Part shown: positions 16,533 to 60,160 of the stretch, one piece after another
How the letters are laid out: every line of letters starts with the position of its first letter
Position numbering within the stretch: position 1 is the stretch's first letter
Source of the DNA: a phage
DNA length: 64,000 nt
Assembly (NCBI GenBank): GCA_027262695.1
Contig: GCA_027262695.1_4722.1
Direction: 5' to 3' (one strand)
Notes under the pieces: generated by a model
The model's database searches: none
What the model was told of the DNA's origin: nothing
What the model saw: only the letters and a program-made list of their open reading frames with translations
Program-made: the position numbers and the translations under genes

Positions 16533-17229
16533 AATAACTGAACCATTTTATTCCAAAGAACCGCATGAACATCACGGGTGCGTTAGAAAGTTCAATCGCT
16601 TCGTAAAGTTGATCGTAAGCCAGATCGGAGTCAGGAATGGTTTCGCTGATCCGTCTGGCTACCACCAATACGTTACAAATCGGATTATCTTCCAACAGCA
16701 TTTGATTCGGGAGATGCCAACGTTTGAAATCGTAAAAGAACATCGCGTTATACGTTTTACGGATTTCTGCGGGATGCATCGTCGCCGGATGACGGTAGAT
16801 AATCTCGACGATATCTTGCGCACCGAGATACTGTTGAATACCCTCTTTTAACGCAACAGCTGCATCACCGACAAACTCAAACGGGTATGTGTTGACATGA
16901 ACCGAAAAATCCGGCGATGCGATACCGGTTAATCGATCCTTCATGTAATCCGCAACCACATAACACAACCGCCACATTAACTCCGTAGGAATGCATTTAT
17001 CGAGAATGGTTTCGTCAATATTTGCTAACGCGTTCTTAAACTCCTCGTAGGTGTAGTTTACTCCCGCCTGTTTCTCAGGTTCCAGGTTATAGGGCCTGTA
17101 ATGCCATTTCTTTCCCCACTTCCTGATCGCTTCTGGATCCAACGTTGTCGCTACTGCCATCTCAATGTCGAGCAGCGCTTCGAGTTCGACATAAACCGTA
17201 ACATACGCTGCGCTTTCAATCATCATCAC
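16450..17229 (-). CDS. hypothetical protein
   Basis: 259-aa ORF; 3' end overlaps convergent gene 15918..16532 by 83 nt; 5' end overlaps upstream gene by 4 nt. Confidence 0.5.
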   Translation of the reverse strand: MMMIESAAYVTVYVELEALLDIEMAVATTLDPEAIRKWGKKWHYRPYNLEPEKQAGVNYTYEEFKNALANIDETILDKCIPTELMWRLCYVVADYMKDRLTGIASPDFSVHVNTYPFEFVGDAAVALKEGIQQYLGAQDIVEIIYRHPATMHPAEIRKTYNAMFFYDFKRWHLPNQMLLEDNPICNVLVVARRISETIPDSDLAYDQLYEAIELSNAPVMFMRFFGIKWFSYFIPPRVRPQQSSAETPLHEPTPSVEPF

Positions 17230-40467: not shown

Positions 40468-40743
40468 TTATACGTCTTTTCTGTGCGCGTAGAACGCCTT
40501 CGTTCCGTTGTTGATCGCCTCAACCACATCCGGGGTTAACACAACGGCGATATCGCTTCGAGATGACGGTGCGTAATACCCTTCACCGTTCTCGGTAATC
40601 AGGCGATAACGGACTAAGCCTATGTTCGGTTCAACGCGTACCACTCTTTCGAGTTTGTACTTGATGATCTTCGTCAGGCCGATAGTCTCTGATGCGTAGA
40701 TGGCTTTATAAACTTTGTTCTTTGCTGTCGTTTTCATCAACAT
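40468..40743 (-). CDS. small hypothetical protein interleaved in paralog cluster
   Basis: ORF track 40468..40812; internal ATG 40743 chosen to limit overlap with paralog 1 (still 38 nt). Confidence 0.4.
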   Translation of the reverse strand: MLMKTTAKNKVYKAIYASETIGLTKIIKYKLERVVRVEPNIGLVRYRLITENGEGYYAPSSRSDIAVVLTPDVVEAINNGTKAFYAHRKDV

Positions 40744-41599
40744 GGTTTCTGTTTTCCTTGGTTTGTTGTGGTCCCAGGTCGGAGATATCCCAACGGATAT
40801 AACCAACATCACGGATTCGCTCGGCTGTTTCTTCGGATTGTGGATTACGACTGATAACCGGTAGCCATTCCCCTTCTCGGGTTATCTTAACTTCGGTGAT
40901 CTGTAAGCTCATGTTCCAACGAACGTCATAAACCAGCGCGTAACCAAGAGGATGAACAAGCCCATCTTGGTTATACATCTTCAAAAGACCTCTTACATCT
41001 TCGCTACGAAGTGATTTCATGGCTGGACGTACGCGTTGAAGTCTCTTTGTGATATCGTATCCCAACTTAATATCCTTCCAACCCGTCATGACGTAAGGAA
41101 CAACGTTGCGGCGACGGAGTTGATGGTTGTGAGTGGTTTCTTCGGCGGTAAGATGTACCCAACCGAGATCGCTGTACGCCACGAACCGCGCTCCTTCTCC
41201 ATCGAGCACTGTGTGCTCATCTAACGCTGCTGCAACACCATGGCCTGCGTAATACGACGGAAGAACGTTCAGCATTTTAATACGGCTTTCTTGACCGGTA
41301 TGGTCAGGGTCGATATGCGCGTAGTAATAATTACGGCTTACCGGACGACCTTCCGCCATACATCCACGGAAGACAGGGTCCTGCATTCCAAGCGGATGGT
41401 AATACGCGAGCTGTTGCTCGTCACCTTCCCCGATGACCAACAAACGATCTTCACGACTTGGTGTGCTAGGATCTTTCACCGTGATGTAGGTAACAATCAC
41501 TTTCAGATTGTCTAAAATGTCCTGTGGAAGTTTCTCTAAATCCCGTGCGTCGTAAATACGATTAACAACAACGTTTGCAATGTGTTTTGGTAAGCTCAT
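40706..41599 (-). CDS. member 1 of triplicated ~270-aa paralog family (unknown function)
   Basis: Shared motifs LAYYHPLGMQ, SDLGWVHL, HPLGYALVYDVRWN, GYIRWDISDL; unique C-terminal extension. Confidence 0.6.
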   Translation of the reverse strand: MSLPKHIANVVVNRIYDARDLEKLPQDILDNLKVIVTYITVKDPSTPSREDRLLVIGEGDEQQLAYYHPLGMQDPVFRGCMAEGRPVSRNYYYAHIDPDHTGQESRIKMLNVLPSYYAGHGVAAALDEHTVLDGEGARFVAYSDLGWVHLTAEETTHNHQLRRRNVVPYVMTGWKDIKLGYDITKRLQRVRPAMKSLRSEDVRGLLKMYNQDGLVHPLGYALVYDVRWNMSLQITEVKITREGEWLPVISRNPQSEETAERIRDVGYIRWDISDLGPQQTKENRNHVDENDSKEQSL

Positions 41600-41679: not shown

Positions 41680-42522
41680 TCACGCTTTCAAGTCTGAAAT
41701 ATCCCAACGTACGTAACCTGTACGCTCAATGTCGTCAACCAGTCGCTCGGTTTGATTTTCAACGCCAACGACGGGCACCCAATTTAAACGCCAGCGTCCA
41801 CCGACATTAACCTCAACACGCTGCAGATCTTCATTCCAACAAACCCCATTCGGTCTCAAAAAGCCCATCGGATGGATGTAGTCCTCATCGTAATCTTTCA
41901 ATAGCGCGAGAATATCGCTTCGGCTATAAGTCTTCACGCTTGCTAGATGTACGCTTTGTAGCTTATCACGCAGACCCCAACCGTACTCACTATCACGCCA
42001 TTCAGGCATGACAACCGGCAGTACATTCCGATGACGGATGTATTTTGCCGCTTCAGCAATATCAGCTGGGAGATGTATCCAACCTAAATCGCTGTTAGCG
42101 ACAAAATCAGGACTATCCATTTCATGGATGTAACGATCGTAAAGCGTAGCAGCGAGTCCTTCAGCAAGCACGTTTGTTGGAAGGAGGCAGTTGGCGCTTA
42201 TCTTGAAATCGAATACATCGGCATCAGGATCCACGTATGCGTAAAACCCGCGCGCAAAAGCACCGCCATGCTCTTTGAAGTAGTATTGGAACACAGCGTT
42301 TTGCATTCCGATGGGGTGGTAGTAAGCCAACACACGTTGTTCGCCGTCCGTGATTTCAATGAGCCGATCTTTCGGCTTCGGCCAGGTGATCTTCTCAACA
42401 TCGCAAACGCTGACGATCTTTCGTAGATTCACCTTGATATGTTCCGGGAGATGCCCGATTTCATTTTCATGATAAACACGGGTGATGACGTGATGAATAA
42501 CAGATTGTGGTTTAGCTGTCAT
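41680..42522 (-). CDS. member 2 of triplicated paralog family
   Basis: LAYYHPIGMQ, SDLGWIHL, HPMGFLRPNGVCWN, GYVRWDISDL. Confidence 0.6.
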   Translation of the reverse strand: MTAKPQSVIHHVITRVYHENEIGHLPEHIKVNLRKIVSVCDVEKITWPKPKDRLIEITDGEQRVLAYYHPIGMQNAVFQYYFKEHGGAFARGFYAYVDPDADVFDFKISANCLLPTNVLAEGLAATLYDRYIHEMDSPDFVANSDLGWIHLPADIAEAAKYIRHRNVLPVVMPEWRDSEYGWGLRDKLQSVHLASVKTYSRSDILALLKDYDEDYIHPMGFLRPNGVCWNEDLQRVEVNVGGRWRLNWVPVVGVENQTERLVDDIERTGYVRWDISDLKA

Positions 42523-42554: not shown

Positions 42555-42854
42555 TTAGGGTTTAGGTTCCGTTTTGTATTGTGCGAGTAATGCGTTGATC
42601 TGCTCCCGTTGTTCTTTTAAGCATGTGGGAAGCTGGTCTTCCCGTACCGTTCCGATTTCCAACGTGATGTACCAACGTTGTTCGGAAGCCTGCCATTGAA
42701 AACTGCTCTGTAACCGAAGGATGTTGGGATCGCGTACCTTGCTTGCGCTGTAGCGATCGAACCAATCCAGATAAGCGGCTTTTCCTTCCTCGTCGGCAAC
42801 GTAACGCTGCACGCTGTTCTTGCCTTTGTTCTCGTATCCCGTGATGCGGATCAT
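42555..42854 (-). CDS. small hypothetical protein interleaved in paralog cluster
   Basis: ORF track 42555..42908; ATG 42854 overlaps stop of paralog 3 in ATGA arrangement. Confidence 0.45.
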   Translation of the reverse strand: MIRITGYENKGKNSVQRYVADEEGKAAYLDWFDRYSASKVRDPNILRLQSSFQWQASEQRWYITLEIGTVREDQLPTCLKEQREQINALLAQYKTEPKP

Positions 42855-43627
42855 GCGAACGTTTCTCCTGTAACGTGTTGCGGATAGCGTAGCATGGTAA
42901 CATCCCATTGTACGAATCCCTGCTGTTGGAGTTGTTGCATAACCGCTTCAACGTCTTGTCCTGGATGCGCAACCGGCAACCAACGTGTATCCAGCACCTT
43001 CGCTTCAAGGCGGGCTTTGCGCTTGTTCCAACGTACCTCGCTGATCCATGCGAAGCCAAGCGGATGCACCACCTGCGGGTAATGCACGCGCAGCAGGTTC
43101 TTCATCCGGCGAAGGATTGCAAGCCTGGCGTCAAGCGCGTATGGTTTCACCTGGTTAAGCTTGCGGGTGTAATACGTTCCCACGGTTTGGTTCGCCCAAC
43201 CAGGAAGCGCATGATGGGACCCAGCCTGCAATGTATTGTCCCCGTTCGTCTTCAACCAACCGTATTGCCCTGCCGCACGTCCTTTCTCATGTTCAACTTG
43301 TACCAGCTGATCGATGAACGAAGCATCAACGATACCGTGATCCACCTCATCCAACGCATAGCGCACCACCAACCCGCTCGCGCTCATCCGTGCGGGATGC
43401 TGGCTCCGATGCGCGTACCAAACCCTATTAACATGCAGCCGAGAAGGATACGTGTGTGCGCCACGCCAAAACACTTTTCCGAGAACACGTTCTCCACAGT
43501 ACACCATCACCCCTTTGTGATCGATTAGGTAATCCAACACCTTCATGCATTCCGCTTTGATGCTATCCGGTAATGCTAAGTATTCCTCTTCGGTGAACAC
43601 GGTATCAAAAATGATTTCATCGCTCAT
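42851..43627 (-). CDS. member 3 of triplicated paralog family (most divergent)
   Basis: HPLGFAWISEVRWN and GFVQWDVTML align with members 1 and 2. Confidence 0.55.
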   Translation of the reverse strand: MSDEIIFDTVFTEEEYLALPDSIKAECMKVLDYLIDHKGVMVYCGERVLGKVFWRGAHTYPSRLHVNRVWYAHRSQHPARMSASGLVVRYALDEVDHGIVDASFIDQLVQVEHEKGRAAGQYGWLKTNGDNTLQAGSHHALPGWANQTVGTYYTRKLNQVKPYALDARLAILRRMKNLLRVHYPQVVHPLGFAWISEVRWNKRKARLEAKVLDTRWLPVAHPGQDVEAVMQQLQQQGFVQWDVTMLRYPQHVTGETFA

Positions 43628-43639
43628 GGATAAAGTTCC

Positions 43640-44075
43640 TTGTTTTCACGTTGTTTGATTAACGTATTGATTTCTGATGATGATAACATCGATATGTTTG
43701 CTGTTATCAAGAAGGTAATATAGCCGTGAAAGGATTTGTATTACAGAAAGGATATTTGTTTTTAAGAAGGGACGATGGTTATCAGGAAGGAGGTTATCGG
43801 TAGGTGTAGGAGAGGGGATTTCAAGGAAGGTTTAAGAGGATAGTTATGTTGTTTAGTTGAGAGTTTGCTAAAATAGCTTTATCGTTATCTTAGTTTATCT
43901 GTGTATTCGTTAGGTATCTTGATTTATCTTCTTAATGATCTTTTCAAAAGTGTTATCATGGTTATCTTAGGTTATGTCTTAATTGTTTTATCTTGGTATG
44001 TTTAAGTTGTTTTAAGTTATCTGTTTATCTATCTTGTTATCTTGTTTAAGTTGTTAATGGCTTATCTTCAAAACA
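43640..44075. repeat. AT-rich non-coding region with purine-rich (A/G)GAAGG repeats (about 43700-43850) and at least 8 TATCTT iterons (about 43880-44070)
   Basis: No credible ORF; copies such as GTTATCTTAG, GGTATCTTGA, TTTATCTTCT, GGTTATCTTAGG, TTTATCTTGG, GCTTATCTTC; TGTTTAAGTTGTT twice. Confidence 0.6.
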
Positions 44076-44085
44076 ATGGATAACA

Positions 44086-44131
44086 TGTGTTTACTACGCT
44101 CGTTGAGTTATAACTCAACGGTAACACATGT
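44086..44131. promoter_or_regulatory. composite palindrome: perfect 20-bp CGTTGAGTTATAACTCAACG flanked by inverted ACATGTGTT / AACACATGT
   Basis: 44101-44120 is its own reverse complement; flanking arms extend the dyad imperfectly. Confidence 0.45.
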
Positions 44132-44535
44132 CATCTGTGCATTACACTACGTTACATGCTTATCAACGTTTTGTGAAGACAAAACGTTCAACTCTAAAAA
44201 ACCATTTGTGATACTCTTCTTCACGTTGTTCATCAGAGTATCTCGTCTATCCTCACTGCGTTCGCATACGACATCACCGTTATACGCTAACGCTACGCTT
44301 ATAGCTTATAACTCTAAGGATAAAAACATAAACTCGCTTCGCTCGTTTAGTTTTTCTTTTTCTTAGAGTTATCATGTTGCTCGTCTCTAAAGGACTTCGC
44401 TCCTCCCCCGTCCCCCGAAGGGGCCGAGGTCGTGGAAATTTTACTTTCCAAATACATTTACAACGTCTGTAAACTTTTACCGACACATACCTAATCTTAT
44501 ATTTAAAATTAGAAAAAGAGAAAATACGAACATAA

Positions 44536-44566
44536 CCCTCCTCCAACCCGGAAGGGAAGGAGGAGG
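44536..44566 (-). terminator. hairpin CCCTCCTCC-AACCCGGAAGGGAA-GGAGGAGG
   Basis: Same family as 13571; after stop of 44585..45478; followed on minus strand by TTATGTTCGTATTTT. Confidence 0.6.
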
Positions 44567-44584
44567 TGATAACAGTCTATTTAA

Positions 44585-45478
44585 TTAATCGGAAGTGTTA
44601 TAACCGAATACTGCTTTACCGTAGGTGTGAGTACCATCACTGAGTGACAATACTAATACGTGGTTATACGCATCGTTAACACCCTTGTCGGTAGAATCGG
44701 TGGTAACACCGTTGTAGACAAAGGTAGCTGATTGCAGATTGGTTTTCAGTTCATTGATGATATCATCACTTACACCAGTCTGCTCTTTAATCAGAGTAGT
44801 CAGGTTACCTGCTAAGCTTGCGTCGAGATTTACTTCGTTGCCAGTAATAGCTTGTAAACCTGAAGCGTAAGTACTGAAGTCTAACGGATAGGTTAACAGA
44901 CGTGCTGACGTTTTGGTACCATTGCCTTCATCAACGTAGGTTAAGTTACCCAGGTTGGTAACCTTGATAATGTTAGACAGATCCAGCGTTGTGTTATAAA
45001 CTTTAACTTGAACAGAACCATACCAAGCCAACGAATCTTCTTTGGCTTCCAGGGTAACGGTTTGGATACCTGACTGATCAAAGGTAACGGGATTAGATAA
45101 CGTTTCAGCTTTGATGTCTTTTGTTTTATCCAGGAACTTCTCGCCGGAAGGCGTAACCATACCGTAGCGTTGAGCTACGAGGTCGACCACGTCACCGATG
45201 GTGGTGTTTGCTTCAACACTAACGCGCACCGCGATCTTCTGGAACCATTTAGCCAGATCCAGACGATGATAGGTGACATCGCGGGTATTGAAGTACGGTG
45301 TACCATCACCCGGACTGAGTGTTAATGTTGCTGCACTATCAGAATCGCTTTTGGATTTAAGAACGTATTTGAGATCAGTGTATTTGAAACTGGCTCCCGT
45401 ATCGGCGTTAAGCTGGTTGATCTCATCAACGATAAGTTGCCACGGTGTTTTCAAAGTAAGTGATACTCGACTTGACAT
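44585..45478 (-). CDS. structural-region paralog family member A (YYDR-YG-LAWTGSV family)
   Basis: VTYHRLDL, LVAQRYGMV, LAWYGSVQV. Confidence 0.55.
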   Translation of the reverse strand: MSSRVSLTLKTPWQLIVDEINQLNADTGASFKYTDLKYVLKSKSDSDSAATLTLSPGDGTPYFNTRDVTYHRLDLAKWFQKIAVRVSVEANTTIGDVVDLVAQRYGMVTPSGEKFLDKTKDIKAETLSNPVTFDQSGIQTVTLEAKEDSLAWYGSVQVKVYNTTLDLSNIIKVTNLGNLTYVDEGNGTKTSARLLTYPLDFSTYASGLQAITGNEVNLDASLAGNLTTLIKEQTGVSDDIINELKTNLQSATFVYNGVTTDSTDKGVNDAYNHVLVLSLSDGTHTYGKAVFGYNTSD

Positions 45479-45514
45479 TTTTTTACCTCGATGGTTGTTA
45501 CATCACTCTCAAAA

Positions 45515-45562
45515 GATGTAAATGTTTACAGAAAATAATATATTTTATATTTAATGTAAATG
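45515..45562. promoter_or_regulatory. direct repeats ATGTAAATG (x2) with TGTAAA-tg-TTTACA inverted repeat in AT-rich divergent promoter
   Basis: 45515-45523 and 45554-45562; inverted repeat 45517-45530. Confidence 0.35.
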
Positions 45563-45620
45563 ATATGGAGAACGACTCCGAATCTCCTTTTCGACCATCA
45601 AAATCAGAGGACACACAGTC

Positions 45621-46163
45621 ATGGCCTTAGACTTTAACAAAGCAGCGAAATCCCTTCTGCTCGATCTTATCAACACCAAAGCAACTCGCACACTGACCGA
45701 AGAAGAACTGCAGTTCGGTACTCCGGGGGCATCTTCCGAACATTCTAAGAACACCGTTATTCAGCTGGATGCTGCGGATGAAGCAGAAAACCTGCAGGGT
45801 ACTCAGCAGTTCTACTACGATCGTCTGGCTCTATCTGACGTTTTCGCTGATGTAACCGGCGATGTTACTTTCGAACTGCCGCACGGTACTGAAAGCATCC
45901 AGGCTTCCGAGCTGGTAAGCAAGCTGGTCACCAAATTCGGCCTGGCTTCCCTGACCGGTGAAATCAAAGAAGAAACCTTCCAGCTGTCTGCAGGTACTGT
46001 TGGTCAGGTAACTCTGAGCGCGATCGAGAACGGTCTGGTATATACCGGCACTCTGCAGGTTGCTCTGACCTATGCAGCAGCACCGAAAGACGAACTGGCA
46101 ACCGTTCTGGCGAATAACGTAGCTGAAGGTTTCGTGAAACCTGAAGTAGCTGTCGTTGGCTAA
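45621..46163 (+). CDS. paralog family member B; strongly codon-optimised, probably very abundant virion protein
   Basis: FYYDRLAL, LVTKFGLA, LVYTGTLQV; near-exclusive CTG/GGT/CGT/ACC/TTC codon use unlike neighbours. Confidence 0.65.
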   Translation: MALDFNKAAKSLLLDLINTKATRTLTEEELQFGTPGASSEHSKNTVIQLDAADEAENLQGTQQFYYDRLALSDVFADVTGDVTFELPHGTESIQASELVSKLVTKFGLASLTGEIKEETFQLSAGTVGQVTLSAIENGLVYTGTLQVALTYAAAPKDELATVLANNVAEGFVKPEVAVVG

Positions 46164-46172
46164 TAAGCACGT

Positions 46173-46213
46173 AGAGCAATAGTATGGGTTTTGTACAGCT
46201 CGGCTATTGCTCT
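46173..46213 (+). terminator. stem-loop AGAGCAATAG-n21-CTATTGCTCT directly after stop of 45621..46163
   Basis: 10-bp perfect stem; further hairpins downstream in a ~290-nt 3' region. Confidence 0.4.
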
Positions 46214-46362
46214 TCTACAATTTGGTTGTAACAATCTGCGTGGTTGCACGCTTATCTTTCTCATTGAACGCTTCGTATGATGCGTGGTGTTGAAAGGGTT
46301 GTGGATCTCCTCAAGCGGCCAGGGACCCAGACCAACCTGAATAAACACAAACACATGTTAAG

Positions 46363-46394
46363 CCCCTCCTCATCCGTTATTGGGTGGGGAGGGG
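46363..46394. terminator. bidirectional hairpin CCCCTCCTCATCC...GGGTGGGGAGGGG
   Basis: Between convergent genes 45621..46163 and 46458..47093. Confidence 0.5.
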
Positions 46395-46457
46395 TCTTAT
46401 ACGTCTTTATGCGTTCCGTTCGTTCTGGAGCGTTTTAGAACGGTTTACGACAGGGTT

Positions 46458-47093
46458 TTATTCAGCACTGAAACCGTTCAAACGGATAGCTTCGTAACGT
46501 TTACGTTCACGACGTTTACGCGCCTGCCAACCGTAAATGAACTTCTCGTCTTTCTCACGACGTTCAGCTAATTCGATGTAATACATGCTCTGCATATCCA
46601 GCATCGCGTCGATAAGGTAATCTTTACCTTGCTCGCCACGTTTTGCGATATAAGCGTCCAACGCACCTAAGGTTTTAGGTCCCATCCCACCATCAGCGTC
46701 AATATCTTTCCAGTAAGTTTGACGGTTGTTCATGACGTTGAGGTAACGCTGGAGGTTCTTAACGGCAACGGATTTGCCTGCATTGATACCCAGATCAAAG
46801 AGACGGTCAGCTAAGAACACGGAACGCTTCATGACGTCATCAAGCTTCATCTTATCCCAGAAGTGGGTTTTGTAGATGAAGAACGCCATGTCGTAGGTCA
46901 GATTGCGCATATTACCATTCCAACCGAATTTCGTTTTCAGCGTGGTTTTGTATTGATCGGCGAGCGCTTTCGTAATTCCCATCATGGTTTCATTACCGCT
47001 GTCATCTGGGTCGTTGACGTATCCCGCCTCGATGTTGGTTTTATCACGAATGATGAATTCGCAGGTAAAATCTTTTTCAGTAATCTTGGTCAT
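46458..47093 (-). CDS. endolysin, GH108-like muramidase with PG_binding_3-like C-terminal domain
   Basis: EAGYVNDPDDSGNETMMGIT matches the GH108 motif (EGGYVNDP.D.GG.T.GIT); DADGGMGPKTLGAL matches the peptidoglycan-binding motif. Confidence 0.8.
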   Translation of the reverse strand: MTKITEKDFTCEFIIRDKTNIEAGYVNDPDDSGNETMMGITKALADQYKTTLKTKFGWNGNMRNLTYDMAFFIYKTHFWDKMKLDDVMKRSVFLADRLFDLGINAGKSVAVKNLQRYLNVMNNRQTYWKDIDADGGMGPKTLGALDAYIAKRGEQGKDYLIDAMLDMQSMYYIELAERREKDEKFIYGWQARKRRERKRYEAIRLNGFSAE

Positions 47094-47185
47094 TAGAACT
47101 CCTCGTTTAGATAACGATTTAGAGGAACAGGAAGGCCCTAGAACGCGATAAACGATTTAAACCAGGCAAACCCTAGATTAAACTT

Positions 47186-47199
47186 TTCGAAGCGTTAGA
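47186..47199. promoter_or_regulatory. perfect palindrome TAGAACGCGTTCTA upstream of endolysin gene
   Basis: Related TAGAACG / CGTTCT words also at about 47138, 46411-46432. Confidence 0.35.
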
Positions 47200-47219
47200 A
47201 CGCGTTCTAGAGCGTGAAA

Positions 47220-49268
47220 TTAAATACCCTTGGTTCCTTTCACGCGGTGCGCAATTTCTTCAACCATTGCACGCAAGGCACGAAGCTGTTGGTCGTGTTC
47301 GTACCAACCGCCTAACAGAACCCCGCTATACACCATGGTGTCCAGACTTAACAGTCCTTTATCTGATACGTTGATCATTTCAGGGAACTGTTCTTGTACA
47401 CGTTGTGCGATAACACCGATCTTCTCAACATCAGGATCGTAGTCGTGACGGAAACGGGCAAGCCCGGTGTATGCCATTTCACGTAAACGATCACTGAAAG
47501 ATTCTGGATGGTCTTTCAGATAACGGATGTCGTGTTTACTACGCTCATCTGAACGGATGTATGCGTTAGGAACATCGATGTTGCTGTTGAAGTACAACGC
47601 GCTACCACCACCTGCAGAGTTACCCCAATAGAAGCTAGTAAGAATGCTACCGCCATTACCTGTAACATGCACGGTGCTTCCCACCCTCGTTCCACCGCTA
47701 CCATCAACGAAGACCAGTTTGTTTCCGCTGTAAGAACCCCAGAACAGACGACTATCGATGATGTTGGTTGCGGCGAGGCGGGCGTTACGTGGTGTAGAAT
47801 AGACGGTGTTGATATCTTGCTGCGCCTGTGCGTCAGAAGCGATACCGTAGTTCTGCACATTACCTAAACCTACTTGGGCTTTTGTAACAGCGTGAGGGTT
47901 GTCTCGACGGTTAGCGTGATTGTTAACCAGATCGCCCGCCAATTTCTGAATTGCCCAGTTGGTAGACTGTGGCGTCATGTAACGGTTAGTTGCAGAACCA
48001 CCTTGCGCCTCAGCTTGGTTAGCGGTTGGGTAGTTCTCAACGCTTCCTAACCCTACTTGTGCCTTAGACACTTGGTGCGGGTTATTCTTGTCGGCAATAT
48101 GTGCATTAAGCGGAACTAACGCGAAGGTCTCGATGGACGCTTTGGTTGTGTTCGGTGCCATTAATCGGTTAGCTGCAACCCCAGCACGTGCTTCATCCTC
48201 CGAAGCCATCGGATAGTCTTGCACATTACCTAATCCTACCTGCGCTTTGGTCACCTTGTGCGGGTTGTTGTAATCGGTTTTATGTGCGTTAAGCGGAATC
48301 AATGCGAATTGTTCAATCGCTGCAACGGTACGTAGCGGCGTCATGAATCGGTTATTCGCTGTTCCGTCCTTCGCCTCGCTATCCGAAGCGGTCGGGAAGT
48401 TATCAACGTTCCCAAGGTTAACCTGTGCTTTGGTAACGCTATGTGGGTTATCTTTACGATTAGCGTGAGCGTCGACTAGATCCCCACCCAGTTTAGCAAT
48501 CGCCCATCCAACCGTTTGTGCGGTCATGTATCGGTCAGGTGCTGTACCGGCTTCTGCCTCCGCCTTGTTTGCGGTAGGATAGTTCTGTACATTACCTAAA
48601 CCTACTTGGGCTTTTGTGGTTTCGTGCGGGTTATCGGTACGGTTAGCATGCGCGTAATGCAGATCGGTAAGGTCTTTATCCGCCGCTTGCATGTCTTTAC
48701 GTAGCTGATCGATTGCCGCCCAGAGACGGTTATCGGACGCAGCATCACCGATAAGTATTGCGGCTTTCAGCGAATAGATCGCTAAGCAAAGATGTTCGGT
48801 ACCGTAGATAGCACTAACATGGTGGATGTGTGGTTCAGGCGGATAAAGTTCCGGTTTGTTCTTGATGTCGTCCCAGTTGATCGGACGATCGTCAAGTTTG
48901 AGTTCTTCGATAGCCTGATATAACGCGTCAATAAGACTTACGTAAACACCACCGATGATACGATAGTCGTTAATTAACGTCCCCTCGATATCATCGTTGA
49001 TGATGGCGATCGCCGCACAGATTTCTTTACCTGCGTAAAGCGTCGCATCCTGATACAAGAAGATGGGTTTATAATCCACGCCTCGTACCAGTGTCTTACC
49101 GGTAAGCTTTTCAGTGATGACCAGACTTTCGGTAAAGAACGGTCCGCCATCAAGGGCGTAACATTTATTCTCGGTTCGTGGAACGGTATGCTCTTCACCA
49201 ACGATGTGGTTGCTGGCGAGTGTACCGGTCCAGTCCTCGGGGTACTTCAGGGTAATTGGTGTCGACAT
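47220..49268 (-). CDS. tail fibre protein with five NPH..TKAQVGLGNV repeats and C-terminal S74-type intramolecular chaperone domain
   Basis: Repeats about 47846-48656; C-terminal SDERSKHDIRYL...GVIAQRVQE (about 47220-47590) matches the autoproteolytic chaperone motif of endosialidase/T5 pb1-type fibres. Confidence 0.75.
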   Translation of the reverse strand: MSTPITLKYPEDWTGTLASNHIVGEEHTVPRTENKCYALDGGPFFTESLVITEKLTGKTLVRGVDYKPIFLYQDATLYAGKEICAAIAIINDDIEGTLINDYRIIGGVYVSLIDALYQAIEELKLDDRPINWDDIKNKPELYPPEPHIHHVSAIYGTEHLCLAIYSLKAAILIGDAASDNRLWAAIDQLRKDMQAADKDLTDLHYAHANRTDNPHETTKAQVGLGNVQNYPTANKAEAEAGTAPDRYMTAQTVGWAIAKLGGDLVDAHANRKDNPHSVTKAQVNLGNVDNFPTASDSEAKDGTANNRFMTPLRTVAAIEQFALIPLNAHKTDYNNPHKVTKAQVGLGNVQDYPMASEDEARAGVAANRLMAPNTTKASIETFALVPLNAHIADKNNPHQVSKAQVGLGSVENYPTANQAEAQGGSATNRYMTPQSTNWAIQKLAGDLVNNHANRRDNPHAVTKAQVGLGNVQNYGIASDAQAQQDINTVYSTPRNARLAATNIIDSRLFWGSYSGNKLVFVDGSGGTRVGSTVHVTGNGGSILTSFYWGNSAGGGSALYFNSNIDVPNAYIRSDERSKHDIRYLKDHPESFSDRLREMAYTGLARFRHDYDPDVEKIGVIAQRVQEQFPEMINVSDKGLLSLDTMVYSGVLLGGWYEHDQQLRALRAMVEEIAHRVKGTKGI

Positions 49269-52936: not shown

Positions 52937-52954
52937 CCCACCCATCCGTTATAA
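52937..52954 (-). terminator. hairpin GGTGGGT-aga-ACCCACC followed by T-rich run on minus strand
   Basis: Overlaps stop of fibre gene 52949..55102; TTCCTTTCCTTCTTTTTATTTTT follows on transcribed strand. Confidence 0.55.
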
Positions 52955-55102
52955 CGTTTCGAAGTCGGTTGCTTTGATAACCGCGTTGAAGTTGGCAAGG
53001 AATTCCTTAAGCAACGCTTGGAAGACATCACGGAACGCCGTGTTCGTCTTCAAACTGGTTAAATAATCGTTCTTAAGGTAATCGCTCAGCTTACCGATCT
53101 TCTGCATCTTCTCGCCGTCTTCGTTCTCTCCAGGTTCTTGGCTGTTGATGTTAACCCATTTGATCCCTTCGAGATCGCCATCGGCAAGGAAGTTAGCGGG
53201 CGTCTCATCGTCGTTCAGGATTTTAATTGTGTCGCTGGATTCAATGCCACCGTAAGCTTCCAGAAGCTGGTTGACTGTTAGCGTGTTGGTGTTGATTGAA
53301 CCATTGACACCATCAATACCGATGCCTGCACCTGTGATGGATGTCGCCGAAAGATCGATCGGCCCGGTTAACTTACCACCGTTGATCGGTAACGCACCAA
53401 CTTGCTCTGCGGTGTGTGTGTGGTTGGCTAACGCCGCAAACGCCGCGATAGACTTATATGTCGAATACGGCGTCATGTACGCTGATTGGTTGGTGTTGTC
53501 AGCGGCTTCAGTATCGGTAGCGACATTAAAGTTCTGCACGTTGCTGAGACCGACCTGCGCCTTCGTTACTTCATGCGGGTTGCTCTTATCGACAACGTGT
53601 GCTGCAAAACCGTCACCGGCTAAAGCGGTGATTGCTGCTTTTGTCGCAGCCGGTGTCATATAGCGGTTGGTTGCTTCACCTGCCTGTGCTTCCGCATCAG
53701 AAGCAACAGGATAGTTCTCAACGCTCCCCAAACCGACCTGAGATTTTGTTACTTGGTGTGGGTTTTCGGTATTCGCGATATGGCTACTGAATCCTTGACC
53801 AGCCAGTTGCTCGATTGCGTAACGAACAAGTATTGGCGTCATGTACTTGTTGTTAACCTGACCATCGATGGCTTCTTGGGTGGTGGCAACCCCGAAGTTT
53901 TGCACGCTCCCCAACCCAACTTGCGCTTTCGTAACAGCGTGGGGGTTATTGGTGTTACCGATGTGATCGGTAACCGTTGGGGTGATTAATCCTGCGATAG
54001 CGGCTGCCGTGGTCGCAGGGGTCATGTATTTATCGTTAGCAACACCCGCAGCAGCTTCTACGTTAGATGCTACACCGTAGTTCAATACATTTCCTAACCC
54101 AACCTGCGCCTTGGTTACCCCGTGGGGGTTGTTCTTGTCTCCGGTATGGGTTGTCAACGTAGCGTTAACGTTATCGATACGCGTGCTTAAGCTATCAGTG
54201 ATTGCTTTGATTGCGGCTCGTACACCCGCTGGTGTTGTGTACAGATCTGTGGCCGTACCGGTAATGGTTGTATTACTATCGGCTACACCGTAGTTCTCAA
54301 CGTTTCCGAGTCCCACCTGGGCTTTCGTTACCTTGTGTGGGTTGTTGTAGTTGCTGATGTGCGCAGCAGCACTATCACCACTCAGGTTAGCGATCATCTT
54401 ACGCGTCATCGCCAACGTCATGTACAGATTTTCACCGATGGTTTCCAGATCGCTCTCGGTCGCCGTTGTGAAGTTCTGCACATTCCCCAATCCAACTTGA
54501 GCCTTGGTTACCCCATGGGGATTATCGCGACGATTCTCGTGCTGCAGCAATGCGGTCATTGCTTTATTGAACCCTTCTTCAAGCGGTTCTTTCAATGATT
54601 CGATTGCAGCCACCACATCGTCCCACGTCATTGTGTCGGTTTCGACATTATGCTGGTGGTTGATTGGCGGGAATACGGAAGGAACGTCGGCAACCTTTTC
54701 CCAGAACGTAACGCGGGGATCGTAAAGGTTGTTGGCTAAAACGTTAAGAATTTGTTGTTGATCAAGTGTAAACTCACCCCCCAGTGAATAGTAGTTCAGT
54801 TGCAACTGTCCACTGAATGCGGTGTCCAACAGCATGATGGAACCGTATAATTCCAGGCCGGTCAGCGCAGCCATGGCACGGAAGGGGTGAGTGCATAAAA
54901 AGTCAACGCCTTCTTCCAGATACGCGTTTGTTTCCGGGTTGTAGATCTTTAATCCATTACGAAAATATGGCGCGTATTTAGGAACGAGAAAGTTAAATCC
55001 GGTCCCCGTGGAAGGACGGACAGTGACGAGTTCTTCTGGAACCCATGCGCCATCCAAATTCCCCTGCGGGTTATACGGAAGGCGTTTAATTTCATCTGTC
55101 AT
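52949..55102 (-). CDS. tail fibre protein with six NPH..TKAQVGLGNV repeats
   Basis: Repeats about 53530-54541, e.g. NRRDNPHGVTKAQVGLGNVQNF, NNPHKVTKAQVGLGNVENY. Confidence 0.7.
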   Translation of the reverse strand: MTDEIKRLPYNPQGNLDGAWVPEELVTVRPSTGTGFNFLVPKYAPYFRNGLKIYNPETNAYLEEGVDFLCTHPFRAMAALTGLELYGSIMLLDTAFSGQLQLNYYSLGGEFTLDQQQILNVLANNLYDPRVTFWEKVADVPSVFPPINHQHNVETDTMTWDDVVAAIESLKEPLEEGFNKAMTALLQHENRRDNPHGVTKAQVGLGNVQNFTTATESDLETIGENLYMTLAMTRKMIANLSGDSAAAHISNYNNPHKVTKAQVGLGNVENYGVADSNTTITGTATDLYTTPAGVRAAIKAITDSLSTRIDNVNATLTTHTGDKNNPHGVTKAQVGLGNVLNYGVASNVEAAAGVANDKYMTPATTAAAIAGLITPTVTDHIGNTNNPHAVTKAQVGLGSVQNFGVATTQEAIDGQVNNKYMTPILVRYAIEQLAGQGFSSHIANTENPHQVTKSQVGLGSVENYPVASDAEAQAGEATNRYMTPAATKAAITALAGDGFAAHVVDKSNPHEVTKAQVGLSNVQNFNVATDTEAADNTNQSAYMTPYSTYKSIAAFAALANHTHTAEQVGALPINGGKLTGPIDLSATSITGAGIGIDGVNGSINTNTLTVNQLLEAYGGIESSDTIKILNDDETPANFLADGDLEGIKWVNINSQEPGENEDGEKMQKIGKLSDYLKNDYLTSLKTNTAFRDVFQALLKEFLANFNAVIKATDFETL

Positions 55103-56540: not shown

Positions 56541-57446
56541 TCAGGCTACGTATAACGTTAGATAACCTTCAATGAGGGTGTTCATTACACTGAGTTGGAG
56601 AACGACAGCTTTACTAACATCCGTACGCACCCCGAACGGTAGCGTTTTGAAGTGCTCTGGATCCGTAATAACTTTCGCGTTTTGTAGGTTAAGCGATCCT
56701 GGTATCGCTGACAATACCCAACGATCGTTAACCGTCAGACCAACGATCTCTTCAGAAAGTCCTAACTTCAGAGTGTTCATTTCTGCAATCAGGGCTTCTG
56801 AATGCGCATCGCCCGATGTTAACGTGTAACCATCGGTTAACGCCGTCAACACCGCATCCGATACGAACCAGTTGTACGATACGATCGCACCTGGTAGCTT
56901 ATCGCTATCCCGATCGATGATGTAGTTAAGACCAGCTAACATGTTGTTACGGATGAGGTTGTTCAGGTCGTTATGACCTGATGTCAACTCAACAAGCAGT
57001 TGACCGACCCAGACTTGGTTACCGGGTTTCGGTGTTATTACAACCTGTATCGGCTGTCGGGATTTGTCCAGATCAGCATCAACGATTTCGGTTTTATTCA
57101 GCAGGATACCGTACGTTGAGGCTAAGACAGGCAATACCTCAGAAACCTTGGTCAGTGTATCTAAGGTTTCGATTTCTATCGGCCAACGATGTTGCCCACC
57201 AGACCAAATACCGAGTTTGCTAAGATCGATACGGTTGTAATAGATGTCGACGGAGTTCACGAGCCCGGAACCCGGTTGTGGGTGCACGGTCAACATACTG
57301 TTGCGTTTGTATCCCGTGCTTTCAGAAGCCTCACCGATAACCAGCTTATCCAGCGTCACACCCCGAGCATCGAAATCGCTATGTTTTCGAATCAGTCGGA
57401 AGAGAATTTCCTTTGATTCTAGCCCCAGGATTTCACTGTACTCCAT
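56541..57446 (-). CDS. structural-region paralog family member C
   Basis: DIYYNRIDL, LASTYGILL, QVWVGQLLV. Confidence 0.55.
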   Translation of the reverse strand: MEYSEILGLESKEILFRLIRKHSDFDARGVTLDKLVIGEASESTGYKRNSMLTVHPQPGSGLVNSVDIYYNRIDLSKLGIWSGGQHRWPIEIETLDTLTKVSEVLPVLASTYGILLNKTEIVDADLDKSRQPIQVVITPKPGNQVWVGQLLVELTSGHNDLNNLIRNNMLAGLNYIIDRDSDKLPGAIVSYNWFVSDAVLTALTDGYTLTSGDAHSEALIAEMNTLKLGLSEEIVGLTVNDRWVLSAIPGSLNLQNAKVITDPEHFKTLPFGVRTDVSKAVVLQLSVMNTLIEGYLTLYVA

Positions 57447-57461
57447 TTAACACCCCTTAGG

Positions 57462-58346
57462 TTACGGTAGGATTTCTGCACCGGTTGGACCTGCCTTACG
57501 GGCTTCCAACGCACCAAGGTCGTATTTCAACGTTAACGTATCGTTGGTGGTGTAGAGGTTGTGGTACGTTGAAATCAGGTCGGTAACTTGAGCTCCTACG
57601 ATTTCGTTCATATCGAAGTTGGAACCTTGACCGTCATCAGCACGAACGATTTTATCGCCCGCAGAGACTATTCCAATTTCAGAAATAACCGCGTACTCTT
57701 CACCACCCTCGGTGAGCTTAGCCACATTGCGGTATTCGTTAATATCCCACGGTGTCCAAACCAGAGACACCTTGCAGCTGTAATCGTAATACTCACCTGT
57801 CGCCACTAAAATTCCGGTGGTCGGAATATCCGGTCGTGGCGGGTTGAGGTTCACATCGGTGGGATGCCATTCGATGGTCTGAGCAACACCATCAATGTAT
57901 TTGGTATAACGCATGGAGCGGACAACGTTATCGAAATCGATGCGGCGACCGTAATAACAGATGTACTTTTTACCGCTTTCCAGCGTCTCGATACGCCGTA
58001 ACCCAAATTTAGCACGTTCGTCCGTGGTTAAATCGTTACCCACTTCACGCATTACAAATGGCTTGATCTTCCACGGTGAAAGATTGCTTGCTTCATGGGC
58101 GATCGGCATCGAGGAAGGGATACCGTTCGCATTACGGATGAATTCATGACCCAGGTTACCGATACAGAAGTAACGTACGGCAGGATTACCTTCAGGGTAG
58201 ATCTTCGCTTGGATCTGAAGTTTTTCGTTCAGGGTGCTATGTTCTTCCCACGCGTGAGGAAGTCCCAACGTCAGGTTGGTTTGTACTTGACCACCGATAA
58301 TCGTACGAACGATACGATCGGTAGCACGGATTTGTGTAGAAGCCAT
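57462..58346 (-). CDS. hypothetical structural protein, possible divergent member of the same family
   Basis: YICYYGRRIDF and VSLVWTPW loosely match family motifs. Confidence 0.45.
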   Translation of the reverse strand: MASTQIRATDRIVRTIIGGQVQTNLTLGLPHAWEEHSTLNEKLQIQAKIYPEGNPAVRYFCIGNLGHEFIRNANGIPSSMPIAHEASNLSPWKIKPFVMREVGNDLTTDERAKFGLRRIETLESGKKYICYYGRRIDFDNVVRSMRYTKYIDGVAQTIEWHPTDVNLNPPRPDIPTTGILVATGEYYDYSCKVSLVWTPWDINEYRNVAKLTEGGEEYAVISEIGIVSAGDKIVRADDGQGSNFDMNEIVGAQVTDLISTYHNLYTTNDTLTLKYDLGALEARKAGPTGAEILP

Positions 58347-58362
58347 GTCTTTTCCTATTTAA

Positions 58363-59214
58363 TCAGTTATATTGCATCAACAGGATACCGCCGTAGTTCG
58401 TGCAGTAATCTTGACTTAGTGTAACGATAACCGCATTAGCGAATGCTGGGTTAACCGGATAGCCCTGGGCGATAAGGTCGGTTGTTTTACCTGTTGCGAG
58501 CACGGTTGCCCCATACAGGTTGTTTTCGTCCTCACGACCGTTATAAACCCAAGGGGTTGGTGCAACGTTGTTGAATAAACTCACCAGTGCGCTTAAGTTA
58601 CTACCAACCTTTAATCCAGCAAGATCGGAACGGATGGCTGTACAATCAATAGCGTAACTGTAAACCAATGCCTGGATACGATTTGCGGTGTAGTACGGGA
58701 AATTGAGGCCGGTCATCACCGTGGTCTTCATCATCCCTGCAATATCGCGTGCGCTATCGAGAAGATAAAATTTAACACTCCCTGTCCAGGCTAATCCGGT
58801 TGTTTTCAATTCTACGACATGAGGGAACGGATATTCATCACCTCGAACAATCGGAGAATCAACGCAGCTTTCCTGATCGATAACGATTCCGTACGTTGAT
58901 TGGATCAGCGGGATAAGATCGTGCGTGGTTTTAACACCGGCATCGATTGCAAGCTTCGGCTCCATTCCCAAGAAGAAATCCTGGATTGGAATACGATCGT
59001 ACCATACGTAGCTGCTTTCACGGTACTGCGCTGGTGTTACGGTTGCCGAAGGCGATACTTTAGCGCGGGTATTTCGATTATACGCGTGGTTTCCGTTTTC
59101 AGCAACATCCGTGATATCAAGTGCATCGAAGTTAAAGTCGAAGTCAGGATTGGCTACCTGAATAAGTTCGGCGACCAGTACTTTAGGACTTTTGTTTAAC
59201 AATTTCTGACTCAT
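58363..59214 (-). CDS. structural-region paralog family member E
   Basis: YVWYDRIPI, LIQSTYGIVI, LAWTGSVKF. Confidence 0.55.
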   Translation of the reverse strand: MSQKLLNKSPKVLVAELIQVANPDFDFNFDALDITDVAENGNHAYNRNTRAKVSPSATVTPAQYRESSYVWYDRIPIQDFFLGMEPKLAIDAGVKTTHDLIPLIQSTYGIVIDQESCVDSPIVRGDEYPFPHVVELKTTGLAWTGSVKFYLLDSARDIAGMMKTTVMTGLNFPYYTANRIQALVYSYAIDCTAIRSDLAGLKVGSNLSALVSLFNNVAPTPWVYNGREDENNLYGATVLATGKTTDLIAQGYPVNPAFANAVIVTLSQDYCTNYGGILLMQYN

Positions 59215-59224
59215 TGTTTATTCC

Positions 59225-60160
59225 TTAGCCTTGTTCTTTCGGGGAACGGCCCTGAAGGCTTGCGGTATGCCCGTCGACATTATAATAGAAAATCAACGGA
59301 CCGCCAACAGCAGTACAGTAGTTTTCATCCAGACTGATTTCGATGCCGTATTGGTAACCTGCGCGAGCCGGGATACGTTCGCCTAACTCACCGTTGAAAT
59401 CCACCTTCGCGTTATACAGGTTGTATGGCGCTGTGTTATCGGTTAATACCCAACGATCGGTGGTCATTTCAGCCAGAAGGTCAGCAACCATCACATCGCT
59501 AACAACGGTACCTGTTACCAGCGAAGCCAAAAGCTCACCGTACTCAGACGTATCGCGACTGTAACTGTAGATTTCACCGCTTGCACGTACACCCTGTCCA
59601 AAGAACTTAAGACCGTCCAGCTCTTTGATCGCGATGATATCATCAAGATTCGGTACACGCGATTTCATCAGGATACGAACGCTCCCCGTCCAAGCCAGGC
59701 AACTAGATACGACGCGAAGCAACTGTCCGTTAACGGTATCCCAGTTAAGTTCATCGTTGACGATTTCTTCAGCTGTAAGGCCAAGACCGAAACGTTCCTT
59801 GATGATAGGCCAGATATCACGCATCTTGGTGGCGTCTGGCGCATCAATAAGAATAGGCGCTACGTTACGCAGATACGCGCCGATATTAATACGATCGTAA
59901 TACAGCGTCGTCGAACCTTCATAATCGTCTAACTCAGTAAGCTTAGCGGTTGCCGTTGCCGTAATCTGGGTGTCGCGCTCGTAGGCGCTTTGGTTAGTGG
60001 TTGGTGTTCCTAAAACCAATAATTCAGGTGTCAGGACGTGTTCTCCGTTCTGAGGTGGGTTATCGTGGTTGATAAGACCGTACACGAGATCGGATGAAGG
60101 TAAAGAGACGTCAACCGGGTAAAGTTCGGTGCCGTCAGTAGTTGTTACCGTATCACTCAC
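59225..60160 (-). CDS. structural-region paralog family member F
   Basis: TLYYDRINI, IIKERFGLGL, LAWTGSVRI. Confidence 0.55.
   Translation of the reverse strand: MSDTVTTTDGTELYPVDVSLPSSDLVYGLINHDNPPQNGEHVLTPELLVLGTPTTNQSAYERDTQITATATAKLTELDDYEGSTTLYYDRINIGAYLRNVAPILIDAPDATKMRDIWPIIKERFGLGLTAEEIVNDELNWDTVNGQLLRVVSSCLAWTGSVRILMKSRVPNLDDIIAIKELDGLKFFGQGVRASGEIYSYSRDTSEYGELLASLVTGTVVSDVMVADLLAEMTTDRWVLTDNTAPYNLYNAKVDFNGELGERIPARAGYQYGIEISLDENYCTAVGGPLIFYYNVDGHTASLQGRSPKEQG

Follow-up and report, generated by a model that had tools for sequence, protein, structure and literature searches.

Why should one short gene of a large phage be written in the codons of the most highly expressed Escherichia coli genes? 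The question is raised by a plus-strand gene at positions 45621–46163 of the window, by which we mean the whole 64,000-nt stretch of phage DNA analysed here (GenBank assembly GCA_027262695.1, contig GCA_027262695.1_4722.1). An earlier note on this DNA, made from the sequence, proposed that the gene is strongly codon-optimized, sits in an expression unit of its own, and is either the gene of an extremely abundant virion component or a recent acquisition. Our analysis favoured the former. We estimate a probability of about 85% that 45621–46163 is a single-gene, high-output late expression unit for the ortholog of gp23 of Escherichia phage vB_EcoM_Goslar (hereafter Goslar), one of the two most abundant proteins of the virion.

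Identity of the gene and its locus

The region 45000–47200 of the window was 89% identical to Goslar DNA over its full length. Goslar belongs to the Chimalliviridae and is a nucleus-forming jumbo phage with a genome of 237 kb; the window phage is a Goslar-like E. coli jumbo phage. The protein encoded at 45621–46163 was 91% identical to Goslar gp23 (YP_009820708.1, HOV27_gp023) and equal to it in length. It matched the Pfam family DUF7941 (PF25613) with 74.6 bits (cut-off 27), residues 5–174 aligning with model positions 4–173 of 276, and the PHROG family phrog_2935 ('virion structural protein'). PF25613 was also present in every gp23 homolog found. The gene lay in the same genomic position as in Goslar, divergent from gp22 and convergent with the endolysin gene (gp24). 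The gp22 product matched PF25613 over the whole model with 175 bits, and more DUF7941 paralogs were encoded at 56541–59824. All other credible genes between 37700 and 55102 (17.4 kb) were on the minus strand, as the earlier note had observed for a slightly smaller block. The sole further plus-strand open reading frame (ORF) there, 44076–44366, was not conserved in relatives.

Contigs of Goslar-like relatives are referred to by L numbers (L004–L008 being the Goslar genome and L014 a more distant locus). P numbers (e.g. P0001, P0022) denote gp23 homologs from the homolog search, which included metagenomes. The gp23 homologs fell into allele classes, described below, of which class A is the window's own.

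Codon usage and translational selection

Weights for the codon adaptation index (CAI) were derived from 29 E. coli K-12 genes (ribosomal-protein genes, tufA, fusA and rpoA). The gp23 gene had a CAI of 0.712, which falls within the range of the reference genes (0.54–0.84), whereas the other 61 ORFs of the window had a mean of 0.359 (standard deviation 0.078; z 4.5). Its effective number of codons (Nc), 36.6, was the lowest among the credible genes of the window. Since the G+C content at third codon positions (GC3) was 0.50 and no outlier, the bias is a choice among synonymous codons and not an effect of base composition. Leucine was encoded by CTG in 18 of 23 codons, compared to 20% in the rest of the window, and glutamine by CAG in 9 of 9. 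Threonine was encoded by ACC or ACT in 18 of 19 codons and glycine by GGT or GGC in 12 of 13. The gene was devoid of ACG, TTG and AGT; in the rest of the window, ACG, TTG and TTA were used at 29%, 17% and 22%, respectively. Codon table and CAI thus agree with the bias of highly expressed E. coli genes that had been read in gp23, as well as with the free use of TTA, TTG and ACG by its neighbours.

Such a pattern could be a by-product of amino-acid composition, of strand mutation bias or of chance in a short gene, and gp23 does have only 180 codons and lies on the strand opposite to its neighbours. However, when the same protein was recoded 10,000 times with window-average usage, the CAI averaged 0.380 with a maximum of 0.495, and none of the 10,000 trials reached the observed value (z 12.1). 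Other plus-strand genes of the window had an ordinary CAI (0.29–0.48), so strand does not explain the bias. It was also present in the Goslar ortholog and in every divergent allele: all gp23 alleles had a CAI of 0.58–0.77, even at 44–77% identity. Together these results refute an effect of composition, strand or chance, to which we assign practically no probability.

A formal calculation for all 247 genes of Goslar gave a mean CAI of 0.383 (standard deviation 0.088) and ranked gp23 fourth, a clear outlier. Five genes reached at least 0.70, and the sixth had 0.58. The five were gp41 (major capsid protein, 0.80), gp58 (the main PF12699 protein, 0.79), gp214 (product unassigned, 0.72), gp23 (the short DUF7941 protein, 0.72) and gp246 (chimallin, the nuclear shell protein, 0.70). 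For the 47 proteins on the first page of Table S4 of a Goslar preprint (bioRxiv 10.64898/2026.04.21.720040), CAI correlated with the logarithm of label-free quantification (LFQ) abundance (Spearman 0.72, n = 47, p 1e-8). Within class A, the synonymous divergence (dS) of gp23 was 0.19, compared to 0.40 for gp22 and 0.62 for gp24. A dS of half to a third of that of the neighbours is independent evidence of constrained synonymous sites. A tRNA scan of the whole window detected no tRNA genes, so the phage supplies no tRNAs of its own here. Given the outlying CAI, its correlation with abundance and the low dS, the codon bias of gp23 is translational selection on a very abundant protein.

The other possibility raised by the earlier note, a recently acquired gene, would make the codon usage a reflection of the donor, with no selection for expression. 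It is suggested by the isolation of gp23 as the sole plus-strand gene in a 17-kb minus-strand block, by the plasticity of a region in which neighbouring genes differ between relatives, and by a GC content (0.51) slightly above that of the window (0.467). Nevertheless, all Goslar-like loci, as well as the distant L014, had gp23 at this position and in this orientation, and its family is reported only from chimalliviruses (bioRxiv 10.64898/2026.04.21.720040). The GC3 was ordinary. The bias matched the highly expressed genes of the host, was shared with the capsid, gp58, gp214 and chimallin genes, and was retained by all divergent alleles. Acquisition from E. coli was rejected, as a megablast search of gp23 against 5,426 complete E. 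coli genomes returned no match. The gene thus displayed none of the marks of a horizontally acquired island gene (absence from relatives, atypical composition, a donor), and we consider recent acquisition very improbable. The gp23 homologs P0010 and P0015 are filed in NCBI as Escherichia coli proteins, one of them on a contig of 240,846 nt, which indicates that Goslar-like phage genomes are contained in some E. coli assemblies; the 5,426 complete genomes contained none.

Abundance in the virion and predicted fold

In CsCl-purified Goslar virions, the LFQ area per mass was 229.0 for gp23 and 229.7 for gp58, which together rank highest among virion proteins, and 110 for the capsid protein (bioRxiv 10.64898/2026.04.21.720040). 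Copy numbers per virion were estimated at approximately 2,140 for gp23 and 580 for gp22. The same preprint proposes that DUF7941 proteins, a family reported from chimalliviruses only, polymerise head to tail into long flexible filaments that are anchored on, and radiate from, the peripheral baseplate. This proposal is based on AlphaFold 3 dimers and on negative-stain images of purified gp22 filaments. In view of its 91% identity to Goslar gp23 and the same codon bias, we infer a high copy number of gp23 in the window phage as well. An abundant virion component such as a fibre subunit, as the earlier note suggested, is thus supported by the abundance of the Goslar ortholog, the filament proposal and the genome-wide CAI test.

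An AlphaFold2 model of gp23 built with 20 homologs (mean predicted local distance difference test score 89.7) showed a mixed alpha/beta N-terminal globular domain (residues 1–151) and an extended C-terminal tail (residues 152–180). In a Foldseek search of the PDB, the sole significant match was 9xqd_0, the N-terminal domain of phiKZ gp127 from the outer peripheral baseplate (E 1.5e-7, probability 1.00, template modelling scores 0.63/0.74); the next match had an E value of 0.11. The sequence profile of gp23 found the phiKZ gp127 chain at E 0.0026, and gp22 found the same chain at 8.5e-9. A single-sequence search of solved structures with gp23 returned nothing, so that profile and fold search were both needed. 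Among 1.84 billion representative proteins searched, the gp23 module occurred in 1,025 clusters at E ≤ 0.001. Many of these were short forms of 150–190 aa, and in others the module was N-terminal in proteins of up to 2,353 aa. A docking mode shared by gp22 and gp23 could not be supported by tail similarity: BLASTP detected none and aligned only residues 61–149, at 25% identity.

Presumed promoter side

The AT-rich spacer between gp22 and gp23 was only 0.55–0.63 identical to those of L011 and L012, and conserved blocks stood out from it. The 14 Goslar-type loci kept, in this order, GATGTAA-N-TTTACA, an AT-rich stretch, TATG, a hairpin, an A-rich leader and GAGGA. The TATG was found at the same aligned position in 13 of the 14 loci and was slightly displaced in L017. 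The late promoters that the non-virion RNA polymerase of phiKZ reads require a TATG motif, and transcription begins at the G of this motif (PMC4666361; PMC12809450). TATG is a short, frequent word, and it was found 48–67 nt before the ATG of Goslar gp41, gp218, gp214, gp97 and others. The form CTATG was enriched in Goslar upstream spacers (18 found, 4.4 expected). A scan for sigma-70 promoters gave a chance-level result (9 found, 7.5 expected).

A hairpin directly at the putative transcript start was predicted in the window, in Goslar, in L011 (via a G-U change) and in L017, where it lay in the same place with a different sequence (GGGGAAU...GUUCCCU). When the 57 TATG sites of Goslar spacers were ranked by hairpin energy, it came fourth (−9.0 kcal/mol). 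Hairpins at the 5' terminus are known to make E. coli mRNAs more stable. The leader 3' of the hairpin was largely unpaired in the centroid fold.

Spacers between Goslar genes had a median length of 34 nt, and only 39 of the 247 genes had at least 60 nt on both sides. All five top-CAI genes were among them (p 8e-5), which indicates that a private unit is a common trait of the highest-output genes. Neither the promoter region nor the 3' spacer of gp23 had further copies in the window or in Goslar beyond chance 12–15-mers.

The inverted repeat TGTAAA/TTTACA pointed out in the earlier note is present as a palindrome whose core, TGTAA-N4-TTACA, was conserved in all 14 Goslar-type loci examined. The Goslar genome and the window each contained a single occurrence of the core, with 0.3 expected per genome. 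It is a candidate operator or shared promoter element. The direct repeats fared less well. Two exact copies of ATGTAAATG do exist, at 45516 and 45554 and nowhere else in the window, but the exact 9-mers were not conserved in relatives, which carry AATGTAAATA, AATGTGAATA or AATATGAATA in place of the second copy. With one mismatch allowed, ATGTAAATG was found 20 times in the window against 19.8 expected. It was therefore rejected as a general promoter word, and its second copy is probably incidental.

Several further repeats were observed around this spacer. The gp22 gene is bracketed by an imperfect inverted repeat (44438–44480 and 45510–45541), of which 32 nt are 72% complementary and a 15-nt core 93%. 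The copy in the gap downstream of gp22 contains TTTACA-N5-TGTAAA, and the 9-mers GTTTACAGA and TGTAAATGT are found both in it and in the gp22/gp23 palindrome. In Goslar upstream spacers, TATATTAC was found 8 times (0.3 expected), including upstream of chimallin (gp246) and of gp214, whose spacer has TATG as well. We take TATATTAC to be the early-promoter word of phiKZ. TTTATGC (12 found, 1.1 expected) and TATGCCG (8 found, 0.9 expected) were likewise frequent in these spacers and are possibly terminator tails fused to late promoters.

The 3' spacer

The 294-nt spacer between gp23 and the endolysin gene showed an identity of 0.88–0.97 in all pairwise comparisons of relatives, which is no lower than that of the coding sequences on either side, and folded better than shuffled sequences on both strands (z −4.1 and −4.8). 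Two small ORFs in it (a plus-strand ORF of 53 aa and a minus-strand ORF of 64 aa) were broken by single-base indels in relatives, indicating that the spacer is non-coding. An Rfam scan of 43500–46600 at E values up to 1 gave no credible match and one chance-level snoRNA match.

Three hairpins were predicted in the spacer (H1–H3, Table 1). H1 and H3 correspond to stem-loops already noticed in the earlier note, the latter with somewhat wider limits, and H2 is added here. Across 13 distinct relatives, H1 had three substitutions, each in a single sequence, of which one was in the loop and two preserved pairing. H1 may act as a protector of the 3' end or as a terminator. H2 with the following TTATCTTTCT resembles an intrinsic terminator and was the only hairpin to pass a simple terminator scan; its changes in relatives were in the loop or kept the pair as G-U. 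H3 is annotated as a minus-strand terminator in Goslar and is followed by TCTTATACGTCTTTAT, which is only moderately T-rich. It probably terminates transcription in both directions, that of gp23 on the plus strand and that of the endolysin gene on the minus strand. The distant L014 had different hairpins at the place of H1 and a hairpin of differing sequence, followed by TTTTATGCC, at the place of H3; it thus keeps hairpins at both ends of the spacer but not the middle. We infer that the three hairpins form a tandem, partly two-way terminator array, which would also shield the endolysin gene from antisense transcription.

The spacer is far longer than a two-way terminator requires. It is also more conserved than the adjacent coding sequences, while synonymous sites of the neighbours differ by 0.2–0.6. 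Therefore, it might encode a functional structured RNA beyond the terminators, such as a regulatory 3' untranslated region or a small RNA. Consistent with this, a consensus fold had 84 pairs that were kept in 99.5% of cells, and 20 of these pairs varied one-sidedly through G-U changes, which is specific to the plus-sense RNA. On the other hand, there was a single compensatory double change, and 50 of 500 shuffles scored as well; there was too little variation for structural covariation to decide the matter. The structure was scored on the same sequences it was derived from, and the loops were as conserved as the stems, pointing to conservation of sequence rather than shape. No Rfam family matched, L014 does not retain the middle of the spacer, and frequent recombination through the spacer could alone keep it uniform. 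We thus consider an additional structured RNA unlikely. Its high conservation may reflect a functional RNA, sequence-specific recognition or homogenisation by recombination. No mention of this conservation above the level of the flanking genes was found in either of the two papers naming DUF7941.

A probable single-gene late expression unit

These observations can be combined into a mode of expression for gp23 (Table 1). The phage's non-virion RNA polymerase would begin transcription 54 nt ahead of the start codon, on the G of the conserved TATG. The small hairpin at the start of the mRNA would protect its 5' end, and the unstructured A-rich leader with AGAGGA would recruit ribosomes. Downstream, the three hairpins of the 294-nt spacer would end transcription and protect the 3' end, and the same hairpins would keep strong rightward transcription out of the convergent endolysin gene, which it would otherwise enter in antisense orientation. 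Together with gp22 and other members of the DUF7941 family, the protein would assemble head to tail into flexible filaments anchored on the peripheral baseplate. The earlier suggestion that gp23 has its own expression unit agrees with the conserved TATG, the 5' hairpin and the Shine-Dalgarno site upstream and the three hairpins downstream.

Several points weigh against this reading. Conserved motifs and the analogy with phiKZ are the grounds on which promoter and terminators were assigned. The motif of gp23 is ATATG or TTATG, whereas the enriched form in Goslar is CTATG, and a hairpin after TATG was rejected as a Goslar-wide rule (p 0.97 against coding TATG, p 0.77 against random spacer). H1 and H3 are without a clear T-run, and covariation in the spacer was weak. 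The abundance data were obtained for Goslar, a different phage, in a single label-free measurement. Filaments of DUF7941 proteins are a proposed model: the Goslar baseplate map has no DUF7941 density, and filaments were shown for gp22 only.

Table 1. Features of the gp22–gp24 region, in window coordinates.
Feature	Position	Strand	Remarks
gp22 ortholog	44585..45478	-	full-length DUF7941 paralog, 297 aa; divergent from gp23 out of the shared spacer
AT-rich spacer gp22/gp23	45479..45620	.	142 nt, GC ~0.35; both promoters probably inside
Palindrome TGTAAA-TG-TTTACA	45517..45530	.	core TGTAA-N4-TTACA
Second exact ATGTAAATG copy	45554..45562	+	first copy 45516-45524
TATG, putative phiKZ-type late promoter motif	45564..45567	+	presumed start G45567, 54 nt before ATG; counterpart in Goslar at 16806
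5' hairpin of the presumed mRNA	45567..45587	+	GGAGA...UCUCC
Ribosome-binding site AGAGGA	45606..45611	+	9-10 nt before ATG, in A-rich leader; read from sequence
gp23 ortholog coding sequence	45621..46163	+	180 aa, short DUF7941 protein; Goslar gp023 annotated "virion structural protein"
Most divergent part of gp23	45813..46070	+	codons 65-150
Non-coding spacer gp23/endolysin gp24	46164..46457	+	294 nt, conserved
Hairpin H1	46173..46213	+	17 pairs, 10 nt after stop; −19.7 kcal/mol, z −4.4; no T-run
Hairpin H2	46238..46251	+	GCGUG-GUUG-CACGC, then TTATCTTTCT; −7.9 kcal/mol, z −3.6
Hairpin H3	46355..46404	.	G+C-rich; −32 kcal/mol on plus strand (z −6.7), −21.9 on minus strand
Endolysin gene (gp24/gp024 ortholog)	46458..47093	-	Glyco_hydro_108 and PG_binding_3 (Pfam, PHROG); convergent with gp23

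Allele classes of gp23

The gp23 homologs formed at least six allele classes, which were mostly 41–59% identical to each other; the nearest pair, P0001 and P0022, shared 75%. In relatives compared with the window, gp23 was 44–56% identical where gp22 was 81–94%, gp24 94–96% and gp25 98% identical. For L009, the protein identities of gp22, gp23, gp24 and gp25 were 94%, 56%, 96% and 98%, and for L011 they were 81%, 51–52%, 94% and 98%. For L012, they were 87% (gp22), 47–48% (gp23) and 96% (gp24), with gp25 outside the locus. The nucleotide identity between classes was 0.43–0.53 in the most divergent part of gp23, compared to 0.72–0.94 in gp22 and gp24 and 0.88–0.97 in the 3' spacer. In sliding windows, it reached a minimum of 0.34–0.44 at 45864–46013 and recovered at the stop codon.

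The alleles have moved between backgrounds. L019 had a class-C gp23 (0.92 to L011) in Goslar-like flanks, its gp22 being 0.90 identical to Goslar and 0.74 to L011, and L018, with flanks similar to those of L019, had a class-A gp23. This shows that alleles were exchanged by recombination. In L030, a class-A gene was followed by class-B-like sequence directly after the stop codon. Conversion by DUF7941 paralogs was rejected as the origin of the classes, because each class had its best match in the Goslar proteome in gp23 (42–73%) and matched other paralogs at no more than 33%; the classes are therefore alleles. As judged from these sequence comparisons, the gp23 coding sequence behaves like an exchangeable allele cassette between conserved non-coding flanks. 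We found no mention of the allele classes in either of the two papers naming DUF7941.

Between classes, the nonsynonymous divergence (dN) of gp23 from the window was 0.38–0.57, compared to 0.01–0.14 for the neighbours, and dN/dS was 0.35–0.48, compared to 0.03–0.16. Within class A, dN was ordinary (gp23 0.059, gp22 0.071, gp24 0.043). An ordinary dN within a class combined with a high dN between classes indicates deep, maintained allele classes and not continuous fast evolution. The best-conserved parts of the protein were residues 1–30 and the C-terminal tail, and the least conserved were residues 85–135. The conserved ends would fit conserved subunit contacts, and the variable middle an exposed surface.

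The divergence between classes might result from selection, diversifying or balancing, that acts on an exposed surface of the filament, for instance for binding of variable host surface sugars or for escape from recognition, with alleles shuffled by recombination in the flanks. The number and depth of the classes agree with this, as do the elevated dN and dN/dS, the concentration of variation in the middle of a protein whose ends are conserved as compatible contacts require, the conflict between the allele tree and the flanks, and the junction in L030. However, dN/dS was below 1 everywhere, and the dN of gp23 within class A was close to those of gp22 and gp24. Relaxed constraint on a simple spacer-like subunit would raise divergence equally, and gp21 is variable too (0.42–0.80), so that the whole region may be recombination-prone. 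We regard such selection as possible, at somewhat less than even odds. A broader hypothesis is a little more tentative still. It holds that gp23 comprises deep, codon-optimized alleles of the most abundant non-capsid virion protein, recombined through the flanks, with the variable middle as an exposed filament surface under diversifying or balancing selection and the spacer as both recombination anchor and functional RNA.

Neighbouring regions

Downstream of gp22 lies a 957-nt AT-rich gap (43628–44584, GC 0.36); the window, Goslar, L011 and L012 have no conserved ORF in common there. The left two-thirds of the gap were variable. Its right part (44201–44584) was 0.90–1.00 identical in all relatives, compared to 0.76–0.85 in the adjoining gp22 coding sequence, and folded far better than shuffled sequences on both strands (z −5.7 and −5.4); it matched no Rfam family. 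L009 has a divergent DNA polymerase gene in place of the whole gap.

Further left, three minus-strand paralogs of 297, 280 and 258 aa (40706–41599, 41680–42522 and 42851–43627) shared 26–36% mutual identity and matched no Pfam or PHROG family. The genes of Goslar across this stretch (gp19–gp21) are different and shorter, and the gp21 ortholog was 42–80% identical between relatives. The whole stretch of 40.7–46.2 kb is thus plastic.

To the right of gp23, the endolysin gene had the second-highest CAI of the window (0.56; Goslar ortholog 0.57, 7th of 247); on the left, gp22 ranked fifth in the window with 0.49. Between relatives, the endolysin gene had a mosaic identity pattern unlike that of gp22. 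The minus-strand genes at 47220–49268 and 52949–55102 encode paralogs of 682 and 717 aa, which shared 38–49% identity in repeated segments. Their Goslar counterparts are gp25, whose annotation includes a Peptidase_S74 domain, and gp29; both are listed as likely parts of the peripheral baseplate or tail fibre (bioRxiv 10.64898/2026.04.21.720040). At the left end of the window, a 92-aa minus-strand ORF (1041–1319) had a GC3 of 0.76, an Nc of 38.7 and a CAI of 0.17; it is probably no real gene or overlaps something else.

Significance and comparison with known systems

It is no surprise that an abundant structural protein should have host-adapted codons as well as a promoter and terminators of its own, and the abundance of gp23 in Goslar has already been published. 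The parts that merit follow-up are the allele-cassette behaviour of gp23 and its conserved 3' spacer. CAI alone singled out the proteins that a nucleus-forming jumbo phage makes most, and could flag abundant proteins in uncultured relatives. The gp23 alleles give the DUF7941 filament hypothesis an evolutionary handle, with block-wise variation, conserved ends and natural alleles to work with. TATG with the 5' hairpin, the genome-unique palindrome and the three-hairpin spacer are compact candidate strong expression parts for phage engineering.

The closest comparison is Goslar itself. The two are distinct phages, 89% identical in DNA, and their gp23 proteins share the position between gp22 and the endolysin gene and the same make-up, an N-terminal globular domain and a tail, the C-terminal domain being absent. 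The Goslar preprint (bioRxiv 10.64898/2026.04.21.720040) is apparently silent on codon use, on the expression unit and on allele diversity. The N-terminal domains of phiKZ gp127 and gp126 from the outer peripheral baseplate (PDB 9xqd) have the same fold as gp23. However, gp127 is only 16% identical to gp23 and, with 290 aa, is a full-length form like gp22. The late promoters of phiKZ (PMC4666361; PMC12809450) and the gp23 spacer have in common a conserved TATG that lies within AT-rich spacer sequence, as far from the start codon as is typical, whereas the upstream palindrome of gp23, unique in the genome, has no described counterpart.

Host-adapted codon use is established for phage structural genes, such as the major capsid genes of phages of fast-growing hosts. 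Like such translationally selected genes, gp23 belongs to the most abundant virion proteins, which carry host-optimal codons, in a genome where CAI tracks abundance, and its dS is lowered. Unlike them, it combines a strong bias with a protein that, between allele classes, diverges more than any other in the neighbourhood, which runs opposite to the usual rule that highly expressed proteins evolve slowly. As an analogy, T4-type phages shuffle small expression cassettes between conserved promoter and stem-loop flanks. The gp23 locus is similar in that a variable coding sequence lies between conserved non-coding sequence on a promoter side and a stem-loop side, with alleles found in conflicting backgrounds. 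It differs in that its flanks are unique, with no repeat at many loci, and in that alleles of one essential-looking structural gene, not accessory genes, are swapped.

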